Shown here in pieces: positions 247 to 31,121 of a stretch of 32,000 nt of DNA; the first letter of the stretch is position 1, and each line of letters begins with the position of its first letter. This DNA comes from an uncultured bacterium (GTDB taxonomy: Bacteria > Auribacterota > Erginobacteria > Erginobacterales > CAZKCI01). Position numbers and translations under genes: made by a program. The notes beneath the pieces were generated by a model, which had not been told where the DNA came from, did not search any database, and saw only the letters and a program-made list of their open reading frames with translations. The stretch lies in NCBI GenBank assembly GCA_964551475.1, contig CAZKCI010000027.1, positions 45,050 through 77,049 of the forward strand, in the 5' to 3' direction.

Positions 247-325
247 GCCGTTAAAAAGCTCAAAAAGCGCAAAAATAGCTGTGAGTTTTGACCCTGTTTT
301 CGTGCCTGGGGAGCTTTTTCGCGGC
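247..325. repeat. Inverted repeat around an AAAAAGCTC/AAAAAGCGC word pair
   Basis: gccgttaaaaagctc (247-261) vs gagctttttcgcggc (311-325), 13/15 complementary; 9-nt direct words aaaaagctc aaaaagcgc. Confidence 0.6.
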
Positions 326-330
326 TAAAT

Positions 331-1395
331 TCATGCGGCCGAGCCCGGGTCTTCTCCGGGGACAACCTCGCCGCGGTGAAAGCGGAGCTGGTCTTTCAGG
401 ATGTAGATGACCCCGCCCACCAGCGAGGCCGCCAGGGAAACGAAATAGAAGTTCAGGGAAAGCATCAGGGCGTGCCTCTTCGCCACGTCTGGATGCAGCC
501 CGTCCGGATCCAGGCACGCGAGCGAACCGAAGAACAGGATAAAAGCGGCTTCCCGGGTCCCCAGGCCCGAGAAGGAGATCGGCAGCGACATGATAACCGA
601 AATCGTCGGTATAAACAGGAAAAAATACCAGATCGAGATGGGCGGGATCGTTGCCCGAAATACCCGGGAGATCAGCCAGGTGTCGGTGACGATGATCACC
701 CAGATCACCGTGGAGATGAGCAGGGTTTTCACGAGGACCGGCGACTGGCCGCGGTAGACACAGAGGGCGTCGTGGACGTCCGTGATCTTCTTCCGGAAGG
801 CAGCCCAGGGGATAAGAGCGGTGAGCCACCTCAGGAGGCGCTCGCTGAACACGACCAGGAAGAAGAGGATCAGGCCGGCGGACACACCGCCCACGATCAG
901 AAAGATGGAGGCGGCCTTTTTCGGACCGATCGCCGCCCGGAGCTTCCCCGCGCCGAAAAGGAGGGCGACGACAGCCATCACGCACATCCCTCCCACCCCC
1001 ATGAGACGGTCGACGGCGACCGAGGCCAGGGCGGCCGGCCCTTTCTTGGTGAAACGGGAGAGGTAATAGACCTTGACCACGTCGCCGCCGACGGTCGAGG
1101 GGAGGAAACTGTTGAAGAACATCCCGATCATGTAATACATAAAAACGCTTCCCGGGCTCAGCTTCACCCCCTGGGCGCGCAGAAGGAGCCCCCAGCGGAA
1201 AGCCCCGGCGGCGAAGAGCAGGCCCATGATCGCGATGGCGGCGGCCAGGCAGAGGAGGTCGGCCTGGGCGTAATAGCCGGGGAGCTGGGAAAGGCCCCCC
1301 TCAAGGCTGATCTCGTGAAAGATGTAGCCGAGCAGCCCCAGGCCGATAGCCAGGCGGAGGAAGAGGAAAAGGCGCTGTTTGAGAGCGGAGGTCAT
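331..1395 (-). CDS. Multi-pass membrane protein, lysylphosphatidylglycerol synthase TM-region / YbhN (UPF0104) flippase-like family
   Basis: ORF with internal start MTSALKQRLFLFLRLAIGLGLLGYIF; motifs 'MIGMFFNSFLPSTVGGDVVKVYYLSR' and 'SLPISFSGLGTREAAFILFF' are typical of the family. Confidence 0.85.
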   Translation of the reverse strand: MTSALKQRLFLFLRLAIGLGLLGYIFHEISLEGGLSQLPGYYAQADLLCLAAAIAIMGLLFAAGAFRWGLLLRAQGVKLSPGSVFMYYMIGMFFNSFLPSTVGGDVVKVYYLSRFTKKGPAALASVAVDRLMGVGGMCVMAVVALLFGAGKLRAAIGPKKAASIFLIVGGVSAGLILFFLVVFSERLLRWLTALIPWAAFRKKITDVHDALCVYRGQSPVLVKTLLISTVIWVIIVTDTWLISRVFRATIPPISIWYFFLFIPTISVIMSLPISFSGLGTREAAFILFFGSLACLDPDGLHPDVAKRHALMLSLNFYFVSLAASLVGGVIYILKDQLRFHRGEVVPGEDPGSAA

Positions 1396-1449
1396 GGGCT
1401 GGCGAAGAGAAAAAACTATACACGAAGGGAGTGAGGAGACAAAGGGCAA

Positions 1450-1479: not shown

Positions 1480-1488
1480 AACGCATTT

Positions 1489-2607: not shown

Positions 2608-2643
2608 AGCTTTTCCCCGGACAGCGCTAGCTTCGCCTTCGTT

Positions 2644-2764
2644 GGAAACATGGAAATCTAGAAATATGGAAACAAGGAACCGGCTCTCGCCCCTCCGGAG
2701 TCCACTTGTTTCCATATTTCCAGATTTCCATGTTTCCCGATTGCCCCGTTCTCATATTTCCACT
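2644..2764. repeat. Inverted repeat (33-nt arms, 32/33 complementary, 28-nt loop) with an 8-nt tandem word array (TTTCCATA-type, 7 units)
   Basis: Arm 1 2644-2676 ggaaacatggaaatctagaaatatggaaacaag; arm 2 2705-2737 cttgtttccatatttccagatttccatgtttcc. Units from 2709: tttccata tttccaga tttccatg tttcccga ttgccccg ttctcata tttccact. Confidence 0.95.
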
Positions 2765-5073: not shown

Positions 5074-5092
5074 CGGGAAACGCGGTAAGCAG

Positions 5093-5132
5093 TGATCAGT
5101 AATCAATAATCAGCAACCTATAATCTATAATC
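5093..5132. repeat. Low-complexity word repeat between convergent genes (AGTGATCAGTAATCAATAATCAG / CCTATAATCTATAATC)
   Basis: agcagtgatcagtaatcaataatcagcaacctataatctataatc. The 16-mer cctataatctataatc (5117-5132) recurs exactly, inverted, at 18451-18466. Confidence 0.75.
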
Positions 5133-5133
5133 C

Positions 5134-6630: not shown

Positions 6631-7353
6631 CTACCGGCGATGACGGAGGCGCCATCCCTCCCGGATTTTCTCTTCCATATATATTCTCGCCCAACGGAAT
6701 CCGGCCCCGCGAACGATCGCCCGGAGATCGCGGGCGGTCATCCGGGAGCGGACGGGATAGCGACGCCAATGGTAGGGGTCGGTCGAAGGCGCGTTGGCGC
6801 CGGCGCGGGAGGCGCAGAGGCCGCGGTAGCCGGCGCGGCGGACCAGCGCGGGGAAATGGGGCGGGAGATAGCCGCGGGGGAGTGCAAAAAAGGAGATCGC
6901 CGTGTTGAGCTGCTCCTCCAGGCGACGTTTGGATTCGGCCGCCTCGCGGAAAAGATCCGCCGCCGATCTCCCGGTCAGGAGGTCATGGCTCATCCCGTGG
7001 GAACCGACCTCCATCCCGGCGGCGAGAAGAGCCCGCAGGTCGTCCCATCCCATCATCCCTTCCGTTCCGACCAGCGACACGGAGGGGAAGAATACCGCCT
7101 TGAATCCAAACTCAGCGAGCAGGGGCAGGGCCGCGGTGACATTGTCCTTCCACCCGTCGTCGAAGGTGAGGATCGTTGCCGGGGGGCCCGAAACAGTCTC
7201 CCGTTCAACCAGATATTCGCTCAGCGTCGGCGTACGGATGCCTTCATCGCGGAGATAGCCGAGCCAAGACCGGAATCCCTCCGGCGGCAAACGGTAGCCG
7301 GCCGGGCCGCTATTCTCGCTGATGCTGTGGAACATCAGGAACGGAACCATCAT
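6631..7353 (-). CDS. Polysaccharide deacetylase (NodB/CE4 family)
   Basis: Start MMVPFLMFHSISE; 'ATILTFDDGWKDN', 'GMEVGSHGMSHDLLTG', 'FFALPRGY'. Upstream ORF extension is translated repeat sequence. Confidence 0.88.
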   Translation of the reverse strand: MMVPFLMFHSISENSGPAGYRLPPEGFRSWLGYLRDEGIRTPTLSEYLVERETVSGPPATILTFDDGWKDNVTAALPLLAEFGFKAVFFPSVSLVGTEGMMGWDDLRALLAAGMEVGSHGMSHDLLTGRSAADLFREAAESKRRLEEQLNTAISFFALPRGYLPPHFPALVRRAGYRGLCASRAGANAPSTDPYHWRRYPVRSRMTARDLRAIVRGAGFRWARIYMEEKIREGWRLRHRR

Positions 7354-7360
7354 AAACAAA

Positions 7361-7492
7361 ATCCGAAATCCGAAATCCGAAATCCGAAACAAATCCGAAA
7401 TCCGAATGACCGAAACAAAGGATGCCGCCCAGCCGTTTGGGAATTTCGATATTCGAATTTGTTTCGGATTTCGTATTTCGATATTCGAATTT
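7361..7492. repeat. Inverted/tandem repeat element: ATCCGAA 7-mer array and ATTTCGATATTCGAATTT direct repeats
   Basis: Six ATCCGAA units (7361-7388, 7393-7406). Inverted arms 7371-7397 (cgaaatccgaaatccgaaacaaatccg) and 7454-7480 (cgaatttgtttcggatttcgtatttcg), 25/27 complementary. 18-mer atttcgatattcgaattt at 7443-7460 and 7475-7492. Confidence 0.95.
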
Positions 7493-7498
7493 CTCCTT

Positions 7499-8335
7499 TC
7501 ATTCGGTGAATTTAAACAGCGTGATTTCGGGAGGGCAGAGGAAACGGACCGGATAAGGCTTGGACCCGATCCCCCGGTTGACGTAGAGCCAGCCGCCCGG
7601 GAGGGGGAAGAGGCCGCGGAGGAACGGAGAGCGGCCGTAGGATTCGAGGAAACGACCCCAGGCCGGCAGGCCGACCTGTCCGCCATGGGTGTCCCCGGAG
7701 AGCACCAGGTCGGCCCCCTGCTCGATCAGAGCCGGGGCGAGATCGGGGCTGGCGGAGAGGACGACGAGCGGCTCATTCCGAGGAATCCCCTCCAGGGCGG
7801 CGGAGATCCCTCCTTCCCCCCCGTAGTCGACGCCGGCCAGCCAGAAAAAATCCTCCCCGTTCCCGAAGCGCATCTTCAGGCTCTTTCCCCCGATCAGCGA
7901 GAGGCCGGAGCGCTTCCAGAGCAAGACAAAATCGTCTCCCTGGAGGTAAGCCCGGTCGGCGTTCCCCAGGATCCCGTAGCACCACATCCCGGGTCTCAGT
8001 CTCGAAACCAGCCGGGCGACCAGGGGGGCGGCGCGGGAAGATTCGACATAGTCCCCGGTGAAAAGGACGCAGTCCGGATGGAGACGGTTGATCCTTTCGA
8101 TCAGGCTTTTCTCCCGGAACCCCAGCTCCCCGGCGATGTGAAGGTCGGAGACCTGGACGATCCGTCGGCCCTGGAGAACGCGGGCGAGAGCGGGATGGCG
8201 GATGCGGACGGTCGTCACCGTCACCCAGTTCGGCTCGATCACCAGGGCGTCAAAGAGGATAAAGCCGGCCGTGGCGACGGCCGCCAGGCCGAGCAGCGCG
8301 GCCAGAAGAAGGAATTTCGTCGGGGCGGGCCTCAT
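7499..8335 (-). CDS. Metallophosphoesterase (calcineurin-like, YkuE/YaeI-type)
   Basis: N-terminal TM; 'RRIVQVSDLHIAGELG', 'VLFTGDYV', 'YGILGNAD', 'DLVLSGDTHGGQVGLP'. Confidence 0.9.
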   Translation of the reverse strand: MRPAPTKFLLLAALLGLAAVATAGFILFDALVIEPNWVTVTTVRIRHPALARVLQGRRIVQVSDLHIAGELGFREKSLIERINRLHPDCVLFTGDYVESSRAAPLVARLVSRLRPGMWCYGILGNADRAYLQGDDFVLLWKRSGLSLIGGKSLKMRFGNGEDFFWLAGVDYGGEGGISAALEGIPRNEPLVVLSASPDLAPALIEQGADLVLSGDTHGGQVGLPAWGRFLESYGRSPFLRGLFPLPGGWLYVNRGIGSKPYPVRFLCPPEITLFKFTE

Positions 8336-8458
8336 AGAATGCCGCGAGCAGGGTCGAAGCAGTCATCCCCGACGCGGGACGAGGGAACGAATATGAATAT
8401 TCCAGCAACAATCCGGCGCGGGCGGCCGGAGACACCGGCTGACACTTCTGATCAAACC

Positions 8459-8501
8459 GAATAGCCGTCCGCCCCGTTCCAGACGGGCCGGACGGCTATT
8501 C
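8459..8501 (-). terminator. Strong hairpin spanning the stop codon of the 8496-9953 gene (terminator-like, no clear U tract)
   Basis: gaatagccgtccg-c-cccgt-tccag-acggg-c-cggacggctattc: 13-bp perfect stem, one mismatch, 5-bp stem, 5-nt loop. Confidence 0.5.
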
Positions 8502-9953: not shown

Positions 9954-9981
9954 GATGTCAGCCCCCAGCATGAGGAATCGC

Positions 9982-10114
9982 GTCGATGGGCAAGGGCCAG
10001 GTTATTGGTCTGGTTCATGGGCAAAGTCATGGGGCGCGCAACGTAACAGCCCTGCCATCACTACCGACATTGCCCAGGCCCGAACCTTTGACCTTACCCT
10101 TACCCATTTTACCT
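9982..10114. repeat. Interspersed inverted-repeat element, family E copy 1
   Basis: Left arm 9982-10026 gtcgatgggcaagggccaggttattggtctggttcatgggcaaag; right part from 10079 cccgaacctttgaccttacccttacccattttacc. Left arm matches copy 2 at about 38/45 and copy 3 at 34/45. Confidence 0.8.
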
Positions 10115-11150
10115 ATTTTTTAGGGCCCGTCACCTGGATTTTGCTCACCCGGAACTCCTTGAGCTCCGGGTTCTCATACGGCTGAAAATAGTACTGGAAA
10201 CGGCCGGCGACCTCCAGGGGATGGGCGAGGATCGCTTCCAGGTCGTAGGTACCCGGGGGAAGGTCGGCCGGGAGGGCGACCTCCACCGGGCCGACCTTGA
10301 CCAGCTTGCCCTCCGGCCACTGGCTGGTCGGGAAGGGGGGCGAGACCTCGGCCAGCGTGCGGACATTGCCCTCCCGGCTCAAACGGAGAAGCAGGGTGTG
10401 ATCGGATCCCAGGGGACGGCGGGCGATGAAGTAGAACGATCCCGCAAATTTCTCGCCGGGCGAGGCGGAGGCGGGGAATTCCAGACCCATGAAACGGACC
10501 AGCGCCGTCGACGGCGCTTCCTGGGCGGAAGAGGGAAAACCGATATCGGTGTAATAAAGGACCGTCTCCGAGGAGGGGTCCCAGAGGAAGAAGTTCAGGT
10601 AGCCGATCTTGCTGGCGTCGATCCTCTCCGCGATCTGGCGGACGGGGATCTCGATCCGGCGGGACTGGCCGGGGGCGATCTTCTCCGCCCTCTGGAAGCT
10701 CTGGCCGCCGACGTCCTTGACCTTGACCTTGAGATCGACGTCGAAGGACTGGGGGTTGAAAACCGTGAAGAACAGGGAGGCGGCATCCCTCCAGTCCATC
10801 GTCGGCATGGTGTCGTCGGTCCAGAGGAATCCGGGCGACTGGGAAGGGTAGTAGGTCACCCGGGCCCACTTCTCCGGCGAGTCGAAGGGGCTGTTGACGA
10901 TCTCGAAGCGGGTGCCGGCGGTCACCCAGATCTCGGCGTCTTCGGGTCGGGAGAAATCGCAGCGGAAACCGGCCATGTTCTTCGCCTTGACTCCGGAGAC
11001 GATCGCCACCGGCTCGCGCTTGATCTTTTTCAGCCAGGAGGGCAGCTGGGCGATCCGGTCCTTGAGGAAGAGGCCCAGGACCAGGAGCACCAGGACGACC
11101 CAGGCCGCGGTCATGACCCGGTTGACCCATGTTTTTCTTATGGTTTTCAC
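10113..11150 (-). CDS. Single-pass membrane protein sharing the C-terminal module of the 8496-9953 protein; unknown function
   Basis: N-terminal TM (MTAAWVVLVLLVLGLFL); C-terminal 'KLVKVGPVEVALPADLPPGTYDLEA...PYENPELKEFRVSKIQV' aligns with 'QVVEVGPFGMSIPYDLEPGDYEVRM...PLTNTEIKNFALGKISV' of the neighbour. Confidence 0.75.
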   Translation of the reverse strand: MKTIRKTWVNRVMTAAWVVLVLLVLGLFLKDRIAQLPSWLKKIKREPVAIVSGVKAKNMAGFRCDFSRPEDAEIWVTAGTRFEIVNSPFDSPEKWARVTYYPSQSPGFLWTDDTMPTMDWRDAASLFFTVFNPQSFDVDLKVKVKDVGGQSFQRAEKIAPGQSRRIEIPVRQIAERIDASKIGYLNFFLWDPSSETVLYYTDIGFPSSAQEAPSTALVRFMGLEFPASASPGEKFAGSFYFIARRPLGSDHTLLLRLSREGNVRTLAEVSPPFPTSQWPEGKLVKVGPVEVALPADLPPGTYDLEAILAHPLEVAGRFQYYFQPYENPELKEFRVSKIQVTGPKK

Positions 11151-11221
11151 TTGTAAACTAATATAATACTTCCCCGGTCCTGTTTCCGCAACCTGGAAGC
11201 GCTGGCGGCCCGGCTAAAATC

Positions 11222-11249
11222 TTGACACGCTTACCTCCGATACTATACA
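11222..11249 (+). promoter_or_regulatory. Putative sigma70-type promoter for the motor-like operon
   Basis: TTGACA (11222-11227), 16-nt spacer, TATACA (11244-11249); GGAAGGAG ribosome-binding region upstream of ATG 11298. Confidence 0.6.
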
Positions 11250-11297
11250 TTGGCGTGAAGAATCCGGCGCCGGAGGCGCAGGAAGGAGACGTTCACG

Positions 11298-12215
11298 ATG
11301 CGCTTGGCTTTCCTGACCATACTCATCCTCGCGACACTTCCGGGCCAAACCCGGGCGCAACAGCCTGACTCCCCGGAGATGGCCGATCGCACCGACCTGG
11401 AGTCCGTCTGGAAGCGCTCCGGACGGACGACCCGGGTCATCGACTACCCCTTCAGCCCCCGCCCCTGGATCTCCAGCGGTCCCGACCTTCGGGACTGGGG
11501 AAACCAGGGCTACATCTTCATCAACCCGCGGATCGAAGACCGGGCGCGGACCCTTCCCGCCCCCACCCCGGAAGAGGGGCTGACCGCCGTGGAAACGGTC
11601 GAAGCGGAGGAGATCGCCCGCATGCTGGAGGAGGAAAAAGGACGGCGGGGGGCCCTGGAGGCGGAGATCAAAGCGGCGCAGGAGGAGCTCCAGGCGGCCC
11701 GGGAGAAAACCGAAGATCAGTCGGCCAAGATCTTGATTCTCGAAAACCAGATCGAGGAGATGGAAAAGCAGAAGGGCGCCGTGACGGCTGAATGGACAGG
11801 GGAGACCGGCGGAACCGGCGGACCGCCAGCCGCCGGACTTATCGTGGAGAAGACGGACACCTACCCGGTCGGTCAGGACCAGAGCCTGTGGTCGATTGCC
11901 GGGCGGGCCGAGGTCTACGGGAACCCCTTCAAATGGCTCCTTCTCTACCACGCCAACCGCGACCAGATCTTCGACCCCGACCTGATCTATCCCGGCATGA
12001 TCCTGATGGTTCCCCGCTATAAGGACCTGGAGGTTTTCCCGCCCCCGCCGGCGGAAGAGAAAGCGGCGGCGACGGAGCCGGCAGAGGAAGGAGCGGCGGC
12101 GGCGACGCCCGCTTTGACGGAGGAAACCCCTGTTGCCAAGCCCCCGGCGACTTCTCCGGCGAACGCCACCCAGGCTCCAGAAATGCCGGCGCCAAATCCG
12201 TCACCTCTGTCCTGA
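11298..12215 (+). CDS. Secreted coiled-coil protein with C-terminal LysM-like peptidoglycan-binding domain
   Basis: Signal peptide MRLAFLTILILATLPGQTRAQ; coiled coil 'EAEEIARMLEEEKGRRGALEAEIKAAQEEL...'; LysM-like 'YPVGQDQSLWSIAGRAEVYGNPFKWLLLYHANRDQIFDPDLIYPGMILMVPR'. Confidence 0.85.
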   Translation: MRLAFLTILILATLPGQTRAQQPDSPEMADRTDLESVWKRSGRTTRVIDYPFSPRPWISSGPDLRDWGNQGYIFINPRIEDRARTLPAPTPEEGLTAVETVEAEEIARMLEEEKGRRGALEAEIKAAQEELQAAREKTEDQSAKILILENQIEEMEKQKGAVTAEWTGETGGTGGPPAAGLIVEKTDTYPVGQDQSLWSIAGRAEVYGNPFKWLLLYHANRDQIFDPDLIYPGMILMVPRYKDLEVFPPPPAEEKAAATEPAEEGAAAATPALTEETPVAKPPATSPANATQAPEMPAPNPSPLS

Positions 12216-12245
12216 TCACCGATCACTGATTACTTTTTACTGTTT
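12216..12245. repeat. Short word repeat related to 5093-5132 (GATCACCGATCACTGATTAC)
   Basis: gatcaccgatcactgattac; the reverse complement shares AATCAGTGATC with AAGCAGTGATC in the 5093 element (10/11). Confidence 0.5.
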
Positions 12246-14358: not shown

Positions 14359-14359
14359 T

Positions 14360-14560: not shown

Positions 14561-14569
14561 GGCTGCTCC

Positions 14570-15325: not shown

Positions 15326-15354
15326 AAGTAAGGAAGACCGGGGAAACCGGGGGT

Positions 15355-15370
15355 GGGGCGGAAGCGCCCC
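15355..15370 (+). promoter_or_regulatory. Small GC hairpin in the motA-motB intergenic gap
   Basis: ggggcg-gaag-cgcccc perfect 6-bp stem with 4-nt loop; no U tract. Confidence 0.3.
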
Positions 15371-16245: not shown

Positions 16246-16250
16246 ACGCG

Positions 16251-17078: not shown

Positions 17079-17323
17079 ACGACGGCCGGGGGGCGCGTCC
17101 AGGACGCTTCGGCCGCCGCGTGGCTTTTGCTGATCTCCAGCGCGCGCCGGATCGACTTCCCGATCTGCCAACCCGCCAGCGCCCCGAGTAGAACGCTCCC
17201 GGCGATCACTCCCATCCAGATCTTAGCCCCGATCCGCATCCTTTCTCGGGGAAAGTGGGAGCGGGTGGAGATCCGTACGCGAACCTTCTGACGCCGGGGC
17301 GGCGCCGAGTCGCTTCCCGTCAT
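16985..17323 (-). CDS. Small single-TM hypothetical protein, translationally coupled to the radical SAM gene and antisense-overlapping the motB copy 2 end
   Basis: ATG at 17323 forms an ATGA overlap with the stop codon at 17320-17322 of the upstream gene; TM 'KIWMGVIAGSVLLGALAGWQIG'. Confidence 0.5.
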   Translation of the reverse strand: MTGSDSAPPRRQKVRVRISTRSHFPRERMRIGAKIWMGVIAGSVLLGALAGWQIGKSIRRALEISKSHAAAEASWTRPPAVVQFAGETAPPPSAVPAASMPPFAAFPAGSGS

Positions 17324-18438: not shown

Positions 18439-18450
18439 CGCCGAACCACA

Positions 18451-18466
18451 GATTATAGATTATAGG
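18451..18466. repeat. GATTATAGATTATAGG word repeat upstream of the radical SAM gene
   Basis: Exact inverted copy of 5117-5132. Confidence 0.75.
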
Positions 18467-19660: not shown

Positions 19661-19696
19661 TCTATTGATCCGAGCTTAATGTTCCTGACGGATCAT

Positions 19697-19813
19697 GTCG
19701 ATAGGTAAGGGCAAGGTTATCGGTCTGGTCTATGGGAAAGGTCTATGGTCTGGCTCGTCTGGCGGGTTGACAGGCCATACCTAACCCTAGCCCACTGACC
19801 AAACCGTTGACCT
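19697..19813. repeat. Interspersed inverted-repeat element, family E copy 2
   Basis: Left arm 19697-19740 gtcgataggtaagggcaaggttatcggtctggtctatgggaaag; 19714-19736 pairs with 19791-19813 (19/23). Confidence 0.8.
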
Positions 19814-19853
19814 AACCCTTTCCCGCCCACCAACCCGTAGCCTGATCTCTCTG

Positions 19854-20672
19854 CTAGAACCAGGGGGTTCTTTGCCACAGCCAGTGCCAACAATCAAAAG
19901 CCCCCATGAGCTTCAACCGGAAGGCGGCGGGATCGTCGTCGGCCGAGATCTCCGTCCGGGGGAGGGCGAAAGGATCGCCAGACGGACGGCAGGCGCCCGG
20001 GGCCACCGTGACCGCTCCCCGGTATCCGGCGCTCTCGGCCAGACGGCGATGGAGCGGGTGGTTCCGCCCCCGGGGATAGGCGAACCACGCGGGGCGTGTC
20101 CCCAGCTTCTCCCCGATGATCCGCGCGCTCTCCTCGATCTCCTCCTTTGCCTCCTTCTCCGTAAGAGCGGTCAGCTCCCGGTGAGTGAGACCGTGGGAGC
20201 CGACGGTGACGCCGGCGCGCATAAGTTCCCCGAGCGACGCCCAGTCCAGGGGAACGTGCTCACCCGGCCGGCCGCGGTAACGCTCCAGTGAGATCTTCCC
20301 TTCGATCAGGCCCGGGACGACGAAGACGGCCGCGGGGAATCCCCGCTCGCGCAGGATCGGCCAGGCCGCGGAGTAAAAATCCCGGAAGCCGTCGTCGAAG
20401 GTCAGGGCGACGCGGGGACGGCAGCCGGCTCCCTCCGCCGCCAGCGCCGAGGAGAGCGGAACCACCTGCCAGCCGCCGGAACGGAGAAAGTCCATCTGAC
20501 GGGCGAAAGACTCCGGGTGAACGGAGAGGCGGTCCCCGGGGATGTCGGCGACGCGGTGATACATCAGCATCCGCGTTCCCCTCCCCCGGAAGGCCCGCTC
20601 GGCGGCCGCCAGCGGCCAAGCCAGGCGAGGAAGCAGGAAGCGGAGAGATTTTCGTATCCAGAACTGGTTCAT
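19854..20672 (-). CDS. Polysaccharide deacetylase (CE4)
   Basis: Start MNQFWIRKSLRFLLPRL; 'MLMYHRVAD', 'RVALTFDDGFRDFYSAAWPIL', 'TVGSHGLTHRELTALT', 'FAYPRG'. Confidence 0.92.
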   Translation of the reverse strand: MNQFWIRKSLRFLLPRLAWPLAAAERAFRGRGTRMLMYHRVADIPGDRLSVHPESFARQMDFLRSGGWQVVPLSSALAAEGAGCRPRVALTFDDGFRDFYSAAWPILRERGFPAAVFVVPGLIEGKISLERYRGRPGEHVPLDWASLGELMRAGVTVGSHGLTHRELTALTEKEAKEEIEESARIIGEKLGTRPAWFAYPRGRNHPLHRRLAESAGYRGAVTVAPGACRPSGDPFALPRTEISADDDPAAFRLKLMGAFDCWHWLWQRTPWF

Positions 20673-21841: not shown

Positions 21842-21851
21842 AGGAAAAGCA

Positions 21852-21977
21852 GTCGATGGGTCAAGGTTAGGAAATGGGTCTGGTAGATGGGCAAGGTCCA
21901 AGGTGCGTCGGGCCGGCCGGCTCGAACCTAACCCTTACCTCTAGACCAAACCCACTTCTTAACCCTCACCCATCAAC
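21852..21977. repeat. Interspersed inverted-repeat element, family E copy 3
   Basis: Left arm 21852-21896 gtcgatgggtcaaggttaggaaatgggtctggtagatgggcaagg; right arm 21933-21977; 34/45 identical after reverse-complementing. Confidence 0.85.
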
Positions 21978-23034
21978 CAGCTTTTTCCCTGACTACATCC
22001 TTCTCTTTAACATATCCGGCCGCGCAGGCGGAGCAAACGGCCTTCTTCCCCGAGAAGGCCAGCTTGACGCCGCAGCGGCAGATCCAGCCCTGAATCCGGG
22101 CCGGGTTGCCGTAGACCAGGGCGAAGTCGGGGAGATCGCGGGTGACCACCGATCCGGCGCCCACGAAGGCGTAGCGGCCGATGGTGTGGCCGCAGACCAC
22201 GGTGGCGTTGGCGCCGATCGAGGCTCCGCGCTTGACCAGCGTCCGGCGATACTCGTTCTTGCGGGAGACCTCGCAGCGGGGGTTGATCACGTTGGTGAAA
22301 ACCATGGAGGGACCGCAGAAGACGAAGTCCTCCAGCTCCACGTCGTCGTAGACCGAGACGTTGTTCTGGATCTTCACGCCGTTCCCGATCTTCACCCGGC
22401 TTCCCACGTTCACGTTCTGTCCCAGGCTGCAGTTCTCGCCGATCCGCGCCCCGCCCAGGACATGGCTGAAATGCCAGATCTTCGTCCCCTTGCCGATCAC
22501 CGCGCCGGCGTCGACGTAGCTCGATTCATGGACAAAATAATCAGGACCGGCAGGAGAAGAAGAAACAGGACCGGCGGGAGAGGCAGGATGGGCAGGAGCG
22601 GCAGGAGAAACACGAGAAGGTCTTTTCACTATAATTTCAGGTCCTTTCTTGGGCTCGGGTTGAATCAAGGTCTGGCGATAGCGCTTGAGGAGATAAATGG
22701 TTCTTCCACAGAGAGAATCGAGATCCTGGTAAATCTCCGAGGAGAAAAGCTTGTCCTCAATACAATCTTCCAGATCACCGAGAAGTTCTTCCGCTGATCC
22801 CTCGGAAATCTCCAGGAATCTCGCCAATTCCAGCCGGGATTGTCTCCGATAGCCTTCTTGGATATTTTGTTTGATTGAACGGGCGGCGCTGTTCATCTGT
22901 GAAATGCGCCTCATCTCGGAGTGCGGAAATGTTTTTGTAATCCCGAATATCTTTCTCCGTAGTTCCGACGCCGCCTGCCAGAAATGCCATGTACGGTAGC
23001 TCTGGGTCTTGTAATCTTTCTTGGGGCTCTCCAT
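21973..23034 (-). CDS. Fusion: N-terminal four-helix-bundle (S23/IVP-like) domain + low-complexity linker + WbpD-like left-handed beta-helix N-acetyltransferase + C-terminal zinc-ribbon-like CxC...CxxC
   Basis: N-term '[79 protein letters not shown]'; linker '[22 protein letters not shown]'; then '[89 protein letters not shown]'; C-term '[23 protein letters not shown]'. Confidence 0.88.
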
Positions 23035-23060
23035 GATCTTCCCCGTCTTTCTTTTGTTTC

Positions 23061-23141
23061 CTGCGCTTTCCTGCGCTTTCCTGCGCTTCCCTGCGCTTTC
23101 CTGCGCTTTCCTGCGCTTTCCTGCCTATCCTGCCTTTCCTG
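23061..23141. repeat. Tandem repeat: six 10-nt units (CTGCGCTTTC) followed by two 9-nt units (CTGCCTATC CTGCCTTTC)
   Basis: 23061-23120 = (ctgcgctttc)x6 with one t-to-c change in unit 3; 23121-23141 ctgcctatcctgcctttcctg. Contains the stop codon of the Gfo/Idh gene (23125-23127). Confidence 0.97.
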
Positions 23142-25523: not shown

Positions 25524-26947
25524 TATTCTCTCCCGTCCCCCGGGGAGAATATCCCCCGCACCAGGATCCAATCCCTGCGGTTCAGGGCGCCGGAGACGAT
25601 CAGCCCTCCGCCGTAAAGAACGAAAGCGGAGAGGACGATCAGAAGCAGGGGCCATCCGGAAAAGGAAAGCCCCCACAACGCCGCCGCCATGGCCGCCGCG
25701 ACCGGCCAGGGACGGAGCAGAGGCGCCAGGGAGCGGGCGGAGAGATCGTCCCGCAGAAGACGAAGAAAAACCAGGAAAAGGAAAAGCTGGGCGAGCCCGC
25801 CGCCCGCCGCCGCGCCCGCCGGGCCGAAAGGAGCGACCAGAAGAAATGCCGAGGCGGCGTTGATCAGCGCTCCCGCCCCCATCACGCCCGCGAAGAGACG
25901 CTCTTTCCCCGCCGCCACCATCAGATCAAAGAGGAGATAGTTCTGCACCATGAGCAGGGAGACGATCCCGAGCACCCTGACCACTCCGGCCGCGGCGGCG
26001 AAGGAGGGGCCGAAAAAATACACGCAGAGGCGGGGCGACAGGACCAGGGAGATCACGGCGAACGGCAGGGCCGCCATCTGGAGGTAGGCGGCGGAGCGGC
26101 GATAGACGCCGGAGAAGGCGTTCCGGTCGGTCGCGCGCAGGCGGCAGACGGCGGGAAAGAGAGCCCCGACCAGCGAGAGCGGGACCAGCCCTTCCAGGGC
26201 CTGGAAAAAGGAGGAGCCGACGCTGTAATAACCGGCGGCGGCCGCGCCCGACCGCCAGTAAACGATCAGGCGCACAACGTCTTGGAAGGAGTTGAAGAAT
26301 ATCGCCAGCGCAATCAAGGCCCCTCCCCGGACCAGGCGGCGGGCGGCCGCCCCTTCCCGGAAAATGGCGGGCGGAAAAAACAGGCGGCGCACCAGAAGCC
26401 AGGAGAAGACAAACTGGAAAAGCGCGGAGACAAAATAGATCCAGGCCGCCGAAGCCACCGAGCGCGCCAGTAAATATACCAGGGCGAGCAGGAACAGGCT
26501 TTTCGCCGTTTTGACCAGGGCCTCCAGACCCATCACCTCCCGGGAGCGGAAGACCACGGTCAGAGTGTTGGCCAGGCCGGAGACGGCATAGATACCCAGA
26601 CCGAGAAAAACAACCGGGGCCAGAGGACGATAGCGGCCGGAAGGAGCGATCACGATCAGAGCGGTCAGGCCTACCGCCAGGGCCAGGATGATCTTGATCA
26701 GGAGAGTCGTCCCCACCCAGATGCGCTCGCGGGACCGATCGACCGAGCACTCCCGGATCGCGATCTTGTCCAGGCCCAGCTCGATCGCCACACCGAGGAG
26801 GGCGCAGAGCGAGAGCACGGCCCGGAAAGCCCCGTAGCCGCCGGGGCCGAGGCGGCGGGCGAGGATGGCGGCCAGCGCCAGCGAAACCAGGAGCATCGCG
26901 GCCTTGGCGGAGAAGAGAGCGAGGGTGTTGGAAATAATCTTGTTCAT
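25523..26947 (-). CDS. Oligosaccharide flippase family protein (polysaccharide biosynthesis/MviN-like, Wzx-type)
   Basis: Start MNKIISNTLALFSAKAAMLLVSLALAAILARRLGPGGYGAFRAVLSLCALLGVAIELGLDKIAIREC; 12-14 predicted TM segments. Confidence 0.88.
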   Translation of the reverse strand: MNKIISNTLALFSAKAAMLLVSLALAAILARRLGPGGYGAFRAVLSLCALLGVAIELGLDKIAIRECSVDRSRERIWVGTTLLIKIILALAVGLTALIVIAPSGRYRPLAPVVFLGLGIYAVSGLANTLTVVFRSREVMGLEALVKTAKSLFLLALVYLLARSVASAAWIYFVSALFQFVFSWLLVRRLFFPPAIFREGAAARRLVRGGALIALAIFFNSFQDVVRLIVYWRSGAAAAGYYSVGSSFFQALEGLVPLSLVGALFPAVCRLRATDRNAFSGVYRRSAAYLQMAALPFAVISLVLSPRLCVYFFGPSFAAAAGVVRVLGIVSLLMVQNYLLFDLMVAAGKERLFAGVMGAGALINAASAFLLVAPFGPAGAAAGGGLAQLFLFLVFLRLLRDDLSARSLAPLLRPWPVAAAMAAALWGLSFSGWPLLLIVLSAFVLYGGGLIVSGALNRRDWILVRGIFSPGDGRE

Positions 26948-26980
26948 GTCGACGATCCCGACGGCCGGGGCCATAATATA

Positions 26981-27055
26981 ATCTTAGGAAGCCAGGAAAC
27001 CAGGAGGATCCAGGCCGGTCTCATCATCATTCCTGGGTTCCTGGTTTCCTAAGAT
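26981..27055. repeat. Inverted repeat: 25-nt arms, 23/25 complementary, 25-nt loop
   Basis: 26981-27005 atcttaggaagccaggaaaccagga; 27031-27055 tcctgggttcctggtttcctaagat. Right arm encodes the C-terminus of the next gene and its stop codon lies in the loop. Confidence 0.95.
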
Positions 27056-28274
27056 GATCCTCTTGGCCGGGCCGGACGAGACCGGACAGGGCAACCGCGG
27101 CGAAGGCGTAGACGAACGGCATCACCGGCAACCGGTAGCGCCCCTCGGGAAGAAACACCGAGTGGATGAGCGTGAAGGAGAGAATGCCGAGAAGAAAGAG
27201 CGAGGCTTTGCCCTCCCAGCCTCGGGACAGAATCGCCCCGGTGACGCCGAGGAGAAGCGCGACCCAAAGCGAGGCGGCGAGAGGAAGCGAGGGGTTGTGC
27301 GCGTCCAGATGATACAGCCAGGCCAGGCGGCGGAAGCTGAGACGGAGAAACCGGGCGGGATCGCTCCGGATGAAATCCATCGCCTTCTTCCCGTATCCCC
27401 GGCTGTAGGCGATCTCGTCCTCCGTCTCCCCGAGGTGGAACGCGCCGAGGGCGATCAGATCGTTGACCCGCACCGTTCCGCCCGAGGAGTGCGGATTGTT
27501 CGCCAGATAGAAGTTGTTTCCCCCCTGCGTGTTGAGCGGGACAAATTCCCCCAGGACCAGGAAATTCCGCGCCGTCCAGGGGAGAAGAACCAGGAGGAGG
27601 GGAAAAAGAAAGCGCAGGGCGCGGCGGACATACCCTCTCCCCCGCAAGGGCGGCCAGAGGAGACAGGCGGCGGCCAGGATGACGAGTGTCGGGCGACAGA
27701 GGATCCCCATTCCCAGGAGCGCCCCGGCGGCGGGGAGCCGGCGGCCGGTGAAACCGGCTTCCGCGGCCCCCAGAAGGAGAGCCGCCGCCGCGAGCAGGAG
27801 AAAGATAAAGAGCGTCTCCGTCATCAACCGCCCGCTGTAGTAGATGAGCAGCGGGTCGCCGGCCGCGAGGAAGGCCGCCACGCTTCCCTCCCGCGTCCCC
27901 GCGCCGGACCGTCCGGCGAAGGCCGACCGGGCGGCCAGGCCGAGCAGGCCGCAGGAGAACGCCCCCAGAAAGACCTGCGCGACCCGCGCCACGCGAAAAG
28001 AGAAGATCCCTCCCCGGACAAAAACCGCGAGAAATATCGGATAGAGGGGGGGAAAGGAGGCCCGGCGCCAGGGGCTGTAGATCAGCCCTTTCCCCCCGGC
28101 CAGGTTCCGGGCGACGGCGAGGTACATCTTCTCGTCGGGATCGTAGGAGCGCTCCGAGAGACCGAGGACGTAGCCCAGGCGCAGGGCGAAGCCGAGCGCG
28201 CAGGCGGAGAGAAGCAATATCGCGAACGAAGGAGTGCGGTGGCGCGGCCCGTTTGGTCTCACGGCATTCGTCAC
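27027..28274 (-). CDS. Glycosyltransferase family 39 (ArnT/PMT_2-like) membrane protein
   Basis: 'GYVLGLSERSYDPDEKMYLAVARNLAGGKGL', 'FPPLYPIFLAVF', multi-TM, 'LIYYSGRLMTETLFIFLLLAAAALL'. Confidence 0.85.
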   Translation of the reverse strand: MTNAVRPNGPRHRTPSFAILLLSACALGFALRLGYVLGLSERSYDPDEKMYLAVARNLAGGKGLIYSPWRRASFPPLYPIFLAVFVRGGIFSFRVARVAQVFLGAFSCGLLGLAARSAFAGRSGAGTREGSVAAFLAAGDPLLIYYSGRLMTETLFIFLLLAAAALLLGAAEAGFTGRRLPAAGALLGMGILCRPTLVILAAACLLWPPLRGRGYVRRALRFLFPLLLVLLPWTARNFLVLGEFVPLNTQGGNNFYLANNPHSSGGTVRVNDLIALGAFHLGETEDEIAYSRGYGKKAMDFIRSDPARFLRLSFRRLAWLYHLDAHNPSLPLAASLWVALLLGVTGAILSRGWEGKASLFLLGILSFTLIHSVFLPEGRYRLPVMPFVYAFAAVALSGLVRPGQEDHLRKPGTQE

Positions 28275-28299
28275 CCGGCCGCCTGGAGCCGCTCCGTGA

Positions 28300-29373
28300 T
28301 CATTCGCGGGGTGGGAGGCGCGCGAGCTCGGAGAGGAGCGCGCTGACGATCCGGCGCGCCGGCACGGTCCGGATCGCCTGGCCGCGACGAAAGAGCAGAG
28401 CCGAATTCCGCCCCGCCGCGATCCCGAGGTCCGCCTCCCTCGCCTCCCCGGGGCCGTTCACCGCGCATCCCATCACGGCGACGGTGACGCCGGAGAGGGA
28501 GCGGAAACGGGTGGAGGAGAGAGCCGCCTCCACCTGCTTGACCAGGGGGAGGAGATCGACCCGGCAGCGGCCGCAGGTCGGGCAGGAGACCAGAACCGGG
28601 CCGAAAGACCTGAGCCCGAGGGACTGGAGGATGAGTTTCCCCACCCGCGCCTCCTCCTCCTCGGGCGCGCTCAGGGAGACGCGGACGGTATCGCCCATCC
28701 CCTCCAGGAGAAGAGCCCCGATCCCGATCGCCGAGCGGACCGTCCCGGGAAGAAAGGGCCCGGCCTCGGTGATCCCGATGTGAAAGGGATAATCGACCCG
28801 GGCGGAGAGCTCGCGGTAGGCGGCGATCGTGGTGGGGATGTCGAAGGCCTTGACCGAGATCTTGATCTCCCGGTAGCCCTCCTTCTCGATCAGCCGGACC
28901 TCCTGGAGCGCGCTCTCGGCCAGGGCCCGGGCGGTGGGACCGCCGCGGCGGGCCAGGAGGGCCTTCTCCAGCGACCCGGCGTTCACGCCCACCCGGACGG
29001 GGATTCTTTCCCCGCGGCAGGCCGCGATCACCTCGCGGACTTTGAGAGAGGAACCGATGTTGCCGGGGTTGATCCGGAGCCCGGCCACGCCCGCCGCCAC
29101 CGACCGGAGCGCCAGGCGATGATCGAAATGGATGTCGGCGATGACCGGAAGAGGCGAGCGGCGGCAGATCGCGGTCAGGGCCTCCGCCGCCTCCAGGTCG
29201 GGGACGGCGAGGCGGACGATCTCGCAGCCCGCCCGGGAGAGAGAGGAAATCCTCCGGAGCGTGGCGCGGACGTCCCGGGTGTCGGTCTTGGTCATCGACT
29301 GGACCGAGACCGGGGCCCCCCCGCCCACGGGGACCGATCCCACGAGAATCCGGCGCGTTTTCCGTCTCTTCAT
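28300..29373 (-). CDS. ispG: 4-hydroxy-3-methylbut-2-enyl diphosphate synthase
   Basis: 'VSVQSMTKTDTRDVRATLRRI', 'IADIHFDHRLALRS', 'LRINPGNIGS', 'PVRVGVNAGSLEKALL', 'VSCPTCGRCRVDL', 'VAVMGCAVNGPGEAREADLGIA'. Confidence 0.97.
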   Translation of the reverse strand: MKRRKTRRILVGSVPVGGGAPVSVQSMTKTDTRDVRATLRRISSLSRAGCEIVRLAVPDLEAAEALTAICRRSPLPVIADIHFDHRLALRSVAAGVAGLRINPGNIGSSLKVREVIAACRGERIPVRVGVNAGSLEKALLARRGGPTARALAESALQEVRLIEKEGYREIKISVKAFDIPTTIAAYRELSARVDYPFHIGITEAGPFLPGTVRSAIGIGALLLEGMGDTVRVSLSAPEEEEARVGKLILQSLGLRSFGPVLVSCPTCGRCRVDLLPLVKQVEAALSSTRFRSLSGVTVAVMGCAVNGPGEAREADLGIAAGRNSALLFRRGQAIRTVPARRIVSALLSELARLPPRE

Positions 29374-31055
29374 CAGCGTCGGAAGAACACCTGGATGATG
29401 TCGTTGTAGGTCACCAGCAGGAAAAGAAGCAGGAGCAGGCCCAGGCCGATCTGGTGGGCGACGACGATCGCCCGCTCCGAGAGGGGGCGGCGGCGCACGG
29501 CCTCGATCAGGATGAAGAGGATGTGCCCTCCGTCCAGGACCGGGAGGGGGAAGAGGTTGACCACAGCCAGGTTGACGCTGATCATGGCGAGAAAATGGAC
29601 GATCGCGATGGAGATGAGCTTGAACTGGCGGGTCAGGTCGAAGATCCGGACCGGGCCGGCCAGATCCGTCGGGCTGGCCCGGCCGACCAGGAGATAATAG
29701 AGAAAGGAGAAGATGGTCTTGACCATCTTGACCGTCTCGGCGAATCCGTAACGGACCGCCGCCCAGCCCCGGTAGCGGGCGGTGACCGTGTCCGGATAGT
29801 AATCGAAGGCGATGCCGGGGATGTAGCCTTCCGCCGCCACGGTCACCGTGGCGGTCACCGCCTGGGAAGGCAGGAAGAAGAGCCGGGCGGAGCGCTCGAT
29901 GATCAGGCGGAGTTCGCTCCCGGGGGCCGTGGAGGAGATGATCTCCTGGAGCCGATCCGGAGAGGTCTCTTCACCGTTGACACGTGCGATCCGGTCGCCC
30001 GGACGGAGGGCGGCGGCATCGAAGCGGGCGCGGTAATCGACCGCCCGGACCGTTCCCTCTTCCAGGTGAAGGCCGGGGACGACCGTCCGCGTCTCCGCCT
30101 TCGCCTCGACCTCGAAGGTCTTCCCGCTTTCCGGGTCCTCCACTCCCAGGCGGAGGGAACGGGACGGACGGGAGGCGATCTCCTCTTCCAGGGCGGGATA
30201 CGGGAGAGAGCGGCCGTCAATCGAGTTGACGATCATCCCCGCGCGGAGCCCCGACCGGGCGGCCGGGCTGTCGGTGTCCTCCACCCAGACCGCCGCCCGA
30301 CCGGCGGGGGCGACGCCGATCCGCGGACGGGTGGTCCCGGGAAGGATGCGGGGGGCCACTTCCACCCGTCTTTCCTCTCCGTCGCGGAGGTAAACGATGG
30401 CCACGGGAGAATCGGCCCGCCAGGTCGAGATGGAGAGAAGAAAGTCGCTCCACTCTCCCATCGTCTCCCCGTCCACGGAGACGATCTTGTCGCCGGGGAG
30501 GATGCCGGCGGCGGCGGCGGGCGAGCCGGGCTCCACGTTCCCGATATTCGTCCCCTGATAGGGCTTGAAGACCGTCACCCCGTGGCAGGCGATCAGGATG
30601 AAGAGGACGAGGCCGAGCAGAACGTTCATCACCGGACCGGCGGCGATGATCAGGGCGCGCTGCCAGAGCGGCTTGCGGTCGAACTTTTCCCCGTCCGGGA
30701 TGGCGCGGTCCTCCTCTAGGATTTTCTTCTTCGCTTCCTCGTCGTCGCTCGGGAGGTCCTCCTGGCCGGCCATCTTGACGTAGCCGCCCAGGGGCAGGAT
30801 GCCGATCCCGTATTCGGTCGGCCCGGCCCGGAAACGGAGAAGCTTCAGCCCCATGATGTCGAAACCCAGGTAGAACTTCTTGACCCTCACCCGGCAGAGG
30901 CGGGCCATCAGAAAGTGGCCGAGCTCATGGACGAAGATCAGGATCCCCAGGACGACGAGGAACTTGAGAACGCCCTTGATGGGGTCGGGAATGTAAGACA
31001 TGGTTCCCGTGAGGAACCCGGCGATGCTAGCGAGATGGACGGAGAGAGAGGTCAT
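29373..31055 (-). CDS. rseP: Site-2 zinc metalloprotease RseP, with PDZ domains
   Basis: 'VLGILIFVHELGHFLMARLCRVRVKKFYLGF', 'VTEYGIGILPLGGYVKM'-like motif, 'NLFPLPVLDGGHILFILIEAVR'; three PDZ-like GDKI/GMIV/GDRI segments. The actual start may be an internal Met. Confidence 0.93.
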   Translation of the reverse strand: MTSLSVHLASIAGFLTGTMSYIPDPIKGVLKFLVVLGILIFVHELGHFLMARLCRVRVKKFYLGFDIMGLKLLRFRAGPTEYGIGILPLGGYVKMAGQEDLPSDDEEAKKKILEEDRAIPDGEKFDRKPLWQRALIIAAGPVMNVLLGLVLFILIACHGVTVFKPYQGTNIGNVEPGSPAAAAGILPGDKIVSVDGETMGEWSDFLLSISTWRADSPVAIVYLRDGEERRVEVAPRILPGTTRPRIGVAPAGRAAVWVEDTDSPAARSGLRAGMIVNSIDGRSLPYPALEEEIASRPSRSLRLGVEDPESGKTFEVEAKAETRTVVPGLHLEEGTVRAVDYRARFDAAALRPGDRIARVNGEETSPDRLQEIISSTAPGSELRLIIERSARLFFLPSQAVTATVTVAAEGYIPGIAFDYYPDTVTARYRGWAAVRYGFAETVKMVKTIFSFLYYLLVGRASPTDLAGPVRIFDLTRQFKLISIAIVHFLAMISVNLAVVNLFPLPVLDGGHILFILIEAVRRRPLSERAIVVAHQIGLGLLLLLFLLVTYNDIIQVFFRR

Positions 31056-31092
31056 GGATTTTCGATCGGGGATCGCGGATTTTAGTCTGTTT

Positions 31093-31121
31093 ATCTGAGA
31101 TCTGAAATTTGAAATCTGAGA
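31093..31121. repeat. 7-nt word repeat ATCTGAG ATCTGAA ATTTGAA ATCTGAG abutting the dxr stop codon
   Basis: 31093-31120 direct read; the dxr stop codon is 31122-31124. Confidence 0.85.

Follow-up and report, generated by a model that had tools for sequence, protein, structure and literature searches.

The 32-kb stretch of bacterial DNA analysed here (the window; 64% GC), whose uncultured source bacterium we call species A, carries three kinds of non-coding repeat: unpaired tandem arrays of short words, inverted array pairs together with ~140-nt GGT/ACC palindromes, and a cassette built around an open reading frame (ORF) of family PF05635. Among the closest described systems are the short tandemly repeated repetitive (STRR) sequences of cyanobacteria, mostly 7-nt units that are intergenic and often lie in operons, with hairpins between hupS and hupL and upstream of hoxW, for which roles in transcript stability or translational coupling have been proposed (PMC2670836). 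Long simple sequence repeats (LSSR), as summarised in PMC4679880 from Mrazek 2007, have units of 5-11 nt, among which the heptamer is the long unit seen most often in bacteria, and the same summary describes their distribution among bacteria as sporadic. GGGNATC repeats are found in Xanthomonas and Nostoc (PMC4692102), and TAACTGA heptamer direct repeats in marine Beggiatoaceae, cyanobacteria and Bacteroidetes (PMC4679880). Repetitive extragenic palindromes (REP), their mosaic assemblies (bacterial interspersed mosaic elements, BIME) and REP doublets forming hairpins (REPINs) are abundant intergenic imperfect palindromes of 20-40 nt per REP (PMC3116915). REP typically number in the hundreds, often stand as inverted doublets with a fixed spacing, and have a cognate transposase gene that is itself flanked by them. 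Finally, in the intervening sequences (IVS) of 23S rRNA known from Coxiella and Leptospira, terminal inverted repeats form a stem, an S23p ORF lies in the loop, GC content is lower and RNase III excises the element (PMC4990558).

The repeats of species A resemble STRR sequences in their tandem short units, their intergenic or in-operon placement, the recurrence of units at several loci (2-4 per word in 49 kb) and the pairing of arrays into hairpins. They differ in that the host is no cyanobacterium but probably related to Candidatus (Ca.) Auribacterota or the Planctomycetes-Verrucomicrobia-Chlamydiae (PVC) group, judging from IspG relatives and synteny, in its GC content of 64%, and in the words themselves, units of 8-10 nt being as common as 7. 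With LSSR and GGGNATC repeats they share unit length, the prominence of heptamers, a non-coding excess, a position mostly between co-directional ORFs near stops or starts, sporadic occurrence and variable copy number, whereas the many words in one genome with no dominant unit, and their frequent inverted pairing into long stems, set them apart. Like TAACTGA, one heptamer is common to unrelated lineages and arrays lie close upstream of starts without an obvious Shine-Dalgarno sequence, and some local words (TYACTGA / GTRATCA) look similar; unlike TAACTGA, they follow no forward-orientation rule, occur also after stops and in convergent gaps, and comprise many words. The GGT/ACC palindromes recall REP and BIME in their density over 49 kb, gene-end placement, conserved ends and hairpin form, but are ~140 nt rather than 20-40 nt long, no REP-associated tyrosine transposase (RAYT) was found among the ORFs of 49 kb of species A, and the other hairpins of this species have tandem-word arms and unrelated cores. 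The PF05635 cassette has the complementary termini and long stem, the ORF in the loop and the below-genome GC content of a 23S rRNA IVS, and its ORF decays in a relative (species B), as in the Coxiella IVS; it differs in lying inside a protein-coding operon, in having arms made of tandem word arrays, and in a 3' arm that reads in frame as a linker joined to the downstream enzyme.

Tandem units of 5-11 nt beyond chance, a non-coding excess and copy-number variation between species, the features of STRR and LSSR arrays, were all found, and the phenomenon is of a known kind: STRR/LSSR arrays and intergenic palindromes. What is new is the host lineage, the particular families, the evidence from five species of different words in the same gap with the same layout, and the operon-borne IVS-like cassette; no new mechanism is established.

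Results

Repeats between genes far exceed chance

The sequence of species A was extended by 9.7 kb to the left and 7.3 kb to the right of the window (contigs L018 and L005), giving 49 kb, and compared with syntenic loci of species B (L006-L009), C (L016), D (L140) and E (L014/L015). IspG of species B and C is 81 and 67% identical to that of species A, and species E, a Ca. Euphemobacter-like contig, has >20 genes in common order with it. The best named relatives of IspG are Ca. Euphemobacter, "PVC group bacterium" and Ca. Aur... entries; the genus Ca. Euphemobacter is placed in Ca. Auribacterota (PMC9324843). A search of genome contigs with RseP returned one relative and one distant match only.

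Gap statistics were computed on an approximate gene map with 20 gaps and 500 dinucleotide shuffles of each. The periodic run of a gap was matched by at most 8 of the 500 shuffles in half of them (10/20). Tandem Repeats Finder (TRF) reported 14 non-redundant arrays in 2,403 intergenic bases (5.8 per kb; 511 nt, 21% of bases) against 25 in 29,597 coding bases (0.84 per kb; 2% of bases), the latter mostly GC-rich, of period 9 or 12 and typical of codons; shuffled gaps held a mean of 0.88 arrays and a maximum of 4 (100 trials). Long hairpins occupy six or seven gaps, with stems of 25-58 bp that enclose cores of 10-190 nt and energies 3-11 standard deviations under those of the shuffles (z -7.1 for 2588-2860, -4.2 for 7324-7528, -5.7 for 19631-19883, -3.0 for 21872-22002 and -3.9 for 26945-27056, reaching -11 with tighter coordinates). 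The comparison with shuffled sequence proposed in an earlier note on this DNA came out in favour of the repeats. Each site listed there was found where it had been placed or a few bases away, by TRF and by reading the sequences, and the lower GC content that it ascribed to the repeats was also seen: 0.54-0.57 in the palindromic elements and 0.51 over ~22501-23000, against 0.64 for the window overall.

The loci of the relatives gave the same picture, with 2.0-4.9 arrays per kb between genes and 0.26-0.96 per kb within them, a 3- to 17-fold ratio in the loci of species A, B, C and E. Short-unit arrays and hairpins between genes are a real, lineage-wide feature. Occupancy is not universal: gaps 11151-11297, 17079-17319 and 28275-28299 contain neither array nor hairpin, and gap 8336-8495 has an ordinary GC-rich hairpin only.

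Searches for other kinds of element in the window were mostly negative. Rfam 15 gave no match at the gathering score, and a scan for intrinsic terminators (short GC-rich stem, 3-8-nt loop, U-tract) reported none of the word hairpins, a T-run following only the hairpin at 246-326. The layout is not that of a CRISPR, with its 23-50-nt repeats and unique spacers, since the units are 7-10 nt and stand head-to-tail without spacers. Only 2772-2800 and 11222-11251 appeared promoter-like. We infer that the repeats are neither protein-coding nor small RNA genes.

Gaps stay occupied while their words change

Comparison of syntenic gaps, also suggested in the earlier note, revealed arrays or stems of different words at the same positions in the relatives. 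Between the GFO/IDH/MocA oxidoreductase gene (GFO) and the hexapeptide-transferase gene (hexapep), species A has GCGCAGGAAA/CTCCTGCC around the PF05635 ORF, species B has GGCAGGAGR/CTCCTGCCA enclosing what is left of that ORF, species D has an array of the A/B type, species C has AAATCYC and a GC stem, and species E has GGTTCAC/GTGAACC. The next gap, between hexapep and the glycosyltransferase gene GT4a, holds a GGT/ACC palindrome in species A, its remnant in B, CACGAAGNN x3 ... NNCTTCGTG x3 in C and ACACCTT x3 in D. Between the deacetylase gene (deac) and GT4b, species A and B both have GGT/ACC, and species C has CACGAAG arms around a 190-nt core. These gaps are filled in every species examined (GFO-hexapep 5/5, hexapep-GT4a 4/4, deac-GT4b 3/3); gap occupancy is conserved while words and copy number change.

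Copy number differed between dxr and rseP, where an array of the same word starts at the dxr stop codon in both species but counts 4 units in A and 19-27 in B. Two assemblies of species B differ there by 8 units (156 vs 212 nt), a difference that may be assembly collapse, and all other arrays are identical between the strains of this species. At 23057, the 10-mer AGCGCAGGAA, single in species B and D, has been amplified six-fold beside older 9-mers.

At one junction a hairpin arm matches conserved gene-end sequence. In species B, which lacks the 26981-27055 element, PMT_2 ends in ...NHLRKA* and shares an overlap of 4 nt with the Wzx-like gene. In species A the left arm of that hairpin (transcript sense) starts with the conserved PMT_2 codons HLRK (CATCTTAGGAAA), followed by five added codons, a stop and CATCTTAGGAAA again in inverted form, after which the next gene begins with a new 5' end. 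Hairpin arms can, as read from this alignment of gene ends, be built from local gene-end sequence. With its stop codon lost, the deacetylase gene of species B runs on for 14 codons into a GGT/ACC arm.

Words are families within and beyond the genome

Within the 49 kb, ATYTCAR is present at three loci (at one of these there are 11 units, in both orientations), GCAGGAA-type arrays at three to four loci, including one between tRNA-Leu and tRNA-Gly, CTATAATC at four, GTRATCA at two and AATCCGA at two. The words form families that recur across the 49 kb and are not private to single gaps. The earlier note had described them as 'sharing architecture but not sequence': the common layout held, recurring in four to five related species, and the lack of shared sequence did not, as words recur at several loci of the 49 kb.

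A scan for four units recovered ATYTCAR arrays in at least 120 unrelated metagenome contigs from many habitats, with GC contents of 0.19-0.69, and many of these contigs, among the matches listed, also hold inverted pairs and several arrays of other heptamers. Where the flanking genes were co-directional, 12 ATYTCAR arrays were sense and 8 antisense relative to them, which indicates no orientation constraint. The unit contains no stop codon in any of its three forward frames, so that many arrays were mis-scored as coding by a crude ORF caller. Two ATYTCAR arrays of species B (L006 8340-8369 and 20780-20814) end ~30 nt before a start codon without an obvious Shine-Dalgarno sequence; their tails are alike (…CTGAACCC…TCACTGAACCC and …CCCTAATCACTGAACTCCCT) and have TCACTGAACYCC in common.

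Another word, GGTTCAC, is common to species A and E. In species C, CACGAAGNN x3 ... NNCTTCGTG x3 brackets four gaps within 21 kb, around cores of ~45-190 nt that are unrelated in sequence. Beyond these relatives, a soil Opitutaceae contig (L088) has CGCGAATRA x3 ... TTCATTCGCG x3 around a 75-nt core, and a 22-kb region of the cultured Opitutus terrae PB90-1 lacks such arrays; the distribution is thus sporadic. The same soil contig carries, at 7790-7880 and 12670-12810, inverted arrays of 9-14-nt words around short cores, in the layout of species A.

Two further repeats were noticed in the relatives. A perfect palindrome, ATTCATGAAAA...TTTTCATGAAT, lies between cdsA and dxr of species B (L006 6814-6860), with a similar one between PMT2 and Wzx of species C (L016 12600-12650); the resemblance at different gaps suggests another dispersed hairpin family. 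Species C also has, at L016 1057-1176, 2.5 tandem copies of a 48-nt unit matching the 5' part of the adjacent tRNA-Leu(tag) gene.

A dispersed GGT/ACC palindrome

Sites that the earlier note had listed under the word pair TAAGGG/GGTCTGG turned out to belong to one dispersed family of ~140-nt imperfect palindromes, in which the 5' arm is rich in G/T and the 3' arm in A/C. Three copies lie in the window and two just outside it (L018 12597-12735 and 18503-18647), which makes five in the 49 kb, ~1 per 10 kb. These five and one copy of a related species align together at a mean identity of 67%, and are therefore one family and not three words. The consensus ends are GTCGATGGGTAAGGG ... CCCTTACCCATCGAC, with GTCGATGGG...CCCATCGAC conserved, and the stems are kept through compensatory changes, which are seen at 8 of the 43 pairs of the consensus fold.

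Species B has copy 2 as well, in the syntenic gap. Copy 3, whose 5' arm contains the hexapeptide-transferase stop codon, is matched in species B by a 53-nt remnant only (17 bits). A covariance model of the family recovered precisely the aligned copies and this remnant, and over 408 kb of loci it gave no match beyond species A and B. Orientation relative to the operon is the same at all five independent loci, which hints at a polarity for this family. No target-site duplications were visible at the six aligned copies, in which inverted ends are present.

An IVS-like cassette in a polysaccharide operon

The gap between GFO and hexapep, within a polysaccharide operon, is filled by a cassette in which complementary word arrays enclose an ORF. 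Its 5' arm is (GCGCAGGAAA)n at 23057-23141 (TRF: TTTCCTGCGC x8.7) and its 3' arm the complementary (CTCCTGCCN)n at 22545-22615. The duplex formed between the arms has a predicted energy of -97.1 kcal/mol, compared with -68.4 +/- 6.0 for shuffles (z -4.8), and was reached by 0 of 200 shuffles. The ORF starts at 23034 and matches PF05635, "23S rRNA intervening sequence protein", with a Pfam E value of 5.9e-20 (71.9 bits; cut-off 33.8); the nearest solved structure is PDB 2GSC (E 1e-7). The cassette is not inserted at helix 25 or 45 of a 23S rRNA, and Rfam recognised no rRNA in the window.

On the minus strand, 21973-23034 is a single 353-aa ORF in which the PF05635 domain is fused, via a Pro/Ala linker, to the hexapeptide acetyltransferase. 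The linker is encoded in frame by the 9-nt downstream array, and immediately before the conserved N-terminus of the transferase no canonical start codon is visible in frame. In species D, which has the same cassette layout, the PF05635 ORF and the transferase are separate genes (L140 1801-2846), and in species B the PF05635 part is degraded (L006 16195-17109).

Homologues of PF05635 were also found in gaps of unrelated operons: between a pilin and a radical-SAM gene, in an Mrp/Mbh antiporter operon (twice) and between CooC and prismane genes (ORFs at L142 2501-2923, L144 2501-2905 and 3821-4303, and L145 1342-1746). Their upstream arrays are purine-rich and their downstream arrays pyrimidine-rich, and the flanks are significantly complementary at L142 and L145, though not at L144. 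The cassette arms have no significant homology with the GGT/ACC palindromes (one of eight comparisons at ~p 0.03), which leaves the idea that the palindromes are ORF-less derivatives of the cassette speculative.

Individual elements and neighbouring genes

The coordinates of the individual elements are collected in Table 1.

Table 1. Repeat elements of the window, in order of position
Element	Position	Strand	Basis
AAAAAGCKC x2.6 at 253-275, complement GAGCTTTTT at 311-322	246..326		TRF
TTACGYAACC x2.9, unpaired, directly 3' of GT2 gene stop codon	1454..1482		TRF; 1/500 shuffles
Inverted arrays of the 8-mer TGGAAAYA, 42-44-bp hairpin	2639..2743		TRF; z -7.1, tighter -8 to -11
GTRATCA x4 then CTATAATC x2, convergent gap	5085..5133		TRF; 5/500 shuffles
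Heptamer AAATCCG x7 facing TTTCGRA, 49-54-bp hairpin	7359..7493		TRF; z -4.2
GGT/ACC copy 1	9975..10119	-	Alignment; consensus fold; covariance model 108 bits
Weak heptamer run TGATCAC/CGATCAC/TGATTAC, upstream of FliG-domain gene	12205..12235		Word family of 5085
AGATTAT x2.3, reverse complement of CTATAATCTATAATC	18450..18465		TRF; 0/500 shuffles
GGT/ACC copy 2	19690..19838	-	z -5.7; covariance model 121 bits
GGT/ACC copy 3	21845..21985	-	z -8.6; covariance model 123 bits
IVS-like cassette: complementary arrays enclose PF05635 ORF	22545..23141	-	Pfam; arm duplex; GC 0.51
28-bp hairpin, arms of AGGAAAC-type words	26981..27055		z -3.9
ATYTCAR x4 (sense strand), begins at dxr stop codon	31093..31121	-	TRF

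The first hairpin is imperfect (28-29 bp), lies between an LPG-synthase-like gene and the next gene, and has a periodic run reached by 1 of 500 shuffles and a fold z of ~-3.2. Beside the array at 1454 the gene start was re-placed at 1395. The arms of the 2639-2743 hairpin are TGGAAACA x4.6 at 2643-2679 facing TTTCCATA at 2709-2742; this element sits in a divergent promoter gap, 30 nt upstream of the promoter-like sequence at 2772-2800. In the 7359-7493 hairpin, AAATCCG covers 7359-7419 and TTTCGRA 7441-7493; the flanking genes are both on one strand, and the word AATCCGA recurs between uppS and cdsA. The heptamer run at 12205-12235 is not significant alone, 49 of 500 shuffles reaching it, and the word at 18450-18465 marks one of its four loci in the 49 kb. 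The 26981-27055 arms are AGGAAACC at 26986-27005 facing TTCCTGGG at 27030-27050. At 31093-31119 TRF reported ATCTGAR x3.9.

Most genes of the window are on the minus strand. By Pfam content they comprise an exosortase/EpsH-EpsI polysaccharide cluster, many glycosyltransferases, a FliG/MotA/MotB-like block, ispG, rseP and part of dxr. The block, at 12260-17078 inside the exosortase polysaccharide locus, encodes a 700-aa FliG-domain protein, an FlbD-like small ORF (~14362-14548), a MotA/ExbB protein and two MotB/OmpA-like proteins, with no other flagellar genes in view.

The window corresponds to ~16.8-48.8 kb of JGI contig Ga0393267_0000053, save for 4 single-nucleotide differences. Three Logan contigs from two other sequencing runs, together with the JGI contig, match the window without insertions or deletions at 99.97-100% identity, and array copy number is the same in these four independent assemblies of species A. 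Three of the four differences from the JGI contig (2539, 2563 and 2575) are clustered in a 37-nt stretch of the GT2 gene that lies 65-100 nt away from the 2639-2743 hairpin. Logan short-read contigs of species A and B stop at the dxr-rseP heptamer array (L003 and L004 at window position 31122; L009, L012); such arrays therefore fragment short-read assemblies.

Discussion

On balance we think it probable, by analogy with the systems described above and with modest confidence, that the elements are slippage arrays of the STRR/LSSR type and palindromic families acting, if at all, as stem-loops in the transcript or the DNA. Replication slippage is the accepted mechanism for simple sequence repeats. 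It fits the dxr-rseP array with its 4 units in one species and 19-27 in another, and the 10-mer amplified beside 9-mers at 23057. Arrays would be seeded from local sequence and resized by slippage, and the complementarity of the arms would persist through selection for the stem or through intra-palindrome template switching. Where active, the elements may be stem-loops that punctuate polycistronic transcripts and affect processing, stability or the decoupling of neighbouring cistrons, as considered for STRR hairpins, REP/BIME and IVS. The earlier note had called for a generating mechanism, naming template slippage, transposition of small elements or an RNA/DNA structural role; copy number and the 10-mer amplification fit the first of these, and the searches and folds gave no demonstration of transposition or of an RNA role.

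Several observations weigh against this interpretation. Sense-strand folds are favoured in about half of the hairpins, with no consistent sense-over-antisense bias, and these mixed folds do not distinguish a role in RNA from a palindrome at the DNA level. The word hairpins lack U-tails and are not terminator-like, and the unpaired arrays (1454, 5085, 18450 and 31093) have no predicted structure. The arrays of species B strains, identical but for one, are not highly unstable. Slippage alone, moreover, leaves the same word at unlinked gaps and in distant lineages unexplained, as with GGTTCAC in species A and E and with the widespread ATYTCAR.

The hairpins do have a polarity. Of 23 hairpins from four species (window, L018, L006, L016 and L015), 15 have a purine-rich 5' arm, 1 has a pyrimidine-rich and 7 have a neutral one, and in 18 of the 23 this arm contains more G than C. 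This purine-first order is the same read on either strand. A purine-rich, Shine-Dalgarno-like arm next to a downstream start may be selected against, or the arms may be seeded from such sequence.

Non-autonomous mobile elements, of the REPIN kind or resembling miniature inverted-repeat transposable elements (MITEs), could have been spread into gene-boundary gaps as word arrays or palindrome ends by a transposase encoded elsewhere, an explanation we regard as possible though rather unlikely. It would account for the same words and the same ~140-nt palindrome at several unlinked gaps, for the conserved palindrome ends GTCGATGGG...CCCATCGAC, for ~1 GGT/ACC copy per 10 kb, for the four species C gaps within 21 kb bracketed by CACGAAGNN x3 ... 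NNCTTCGTG x3, and for the differences between species in presence at PMT2-Wzx and in the element held by one and the same gap. The palindromes have the inverted ends of a MITE, but no flanking duplication at any of the six aligned copies, and no related insertion sequence was found. Neither a REP-associated (Y1/RAYT) transposase, an insertion-sequence transposase nor a reverse transcriptase was seen among the ORFs of 49 kb of species A and ~21 kb each of species B, C and E. In particular, the REP-associated transposase or reverse transcriptase that the earlier note proposed to look for did not appear in Pfam searches of the large window ORFs and the called genes of L005 and L018, which also gave no PF01797-type (RAYT) match. 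The copies are old (67% mean identity, two of them common to species B), the cores between CACGAAG arms are unrelated and range from ~45 to 190 nt, and one hairpin arm is ancestral coding sequence, all of which speak against this explanation. The best candidates for mobility are the GGT/ACC family and, in species C, the CACGAAG arms.

A second explanation, that the repeats are a functionless by-product of an unusual mutational regime, with frequent slippage, palindrome growth and weak repair, tolerated where no gene is disrupted, also strikes us as tenable but doubtful. Patchy occupancy, with several gaps empty or overlapping in one species and filled in another, would be expected of it, as would word turnover, decaying remnants such as that between hexapep and GT4a in species B, the absence of a strand bias in stability and the sporadic occurrence among bacteria, with arrays in L088 and none in 22 kb of Opitutus terrae. 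It is less easily reconciled with gaps that are filled in every species examined despite complete sequence replacement, with GGT/ACC stems kept through compensatory changes, or with a purine-first polarity of 15 to 1.

The arrays could instead be iterated target sites of a DNA- or RNA-binding protein, or of a few such proteins, in a regulatory network such as that proposed for TAACTGA in Beggiatoaceae (PMC4679880). Beyond that precedent, arrays stand at gene boundaries, two of those in species B stop ~30 nt before a start codon with the common tail TCACTGAACYCC, and some words are common to distant lineages, GGTTCAC to species A and E and ATYTCAR to at least 120 metagenome contigs. Such a network is nevertheless improbable given the many words (at least eight in one 32-kb window), their units of 7, 8, 9 or 10 nt, copy numbers from 2 to 27 and the free orientation of ATYTCAR (12 sense vs 8 antisense). 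Arrays also occupy convergent gaps between two stops (5085-5133), and words are replaced at syntenic gaps between species.

More speculative still is a reading in which the word hairpins and the PF05635 cassette form one class of IVS-like selfish element that, whether or not it carries the four-helix-bundle ORF, colonises intercistronic gaps and is cut by RNase III from polycistronic mRNA, with arms grown by slippage and ORF-less hairpins as decay products. It draws on the rRNA precedent, on PF05635 ORFs in four unrelated operons and on three independent loci with complementary purine/pyrimidine arrays, and we hold it to be a long shot.

Chance or assembly artefact, the outcome under which the earlier note would have had its repeats dismissed, is scarcely conceivable: short-read Logan contigs do break at arrays, and the 156 vs 212 nt between the species B assemblies could be a collapsed array, but the shuffle controls, the same arrays in four independent species A assemblies, which show that the repeats are not an assembly product, and the homologous arrays in related species exclude it.

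Conclusions

In practical terms, such arrays break short-read assemblies and lengthen or truncate annotated gene ends. The role of STRR/LSSR arrays has been an open question since about 1990, and this locus adds a non-cyanobacterial, PVC-related lineage to those in which it can be addressed. With stems of different words in the same gaps, the five syntenic species offer a comparison that separates conserved architecture from conserved sequence. The genes for PF05635 "IVS protein" in stem-flanked cassettes inside protein-coding operons, in turn, link the intervening sequences of rRNA with intergenic hairpins.

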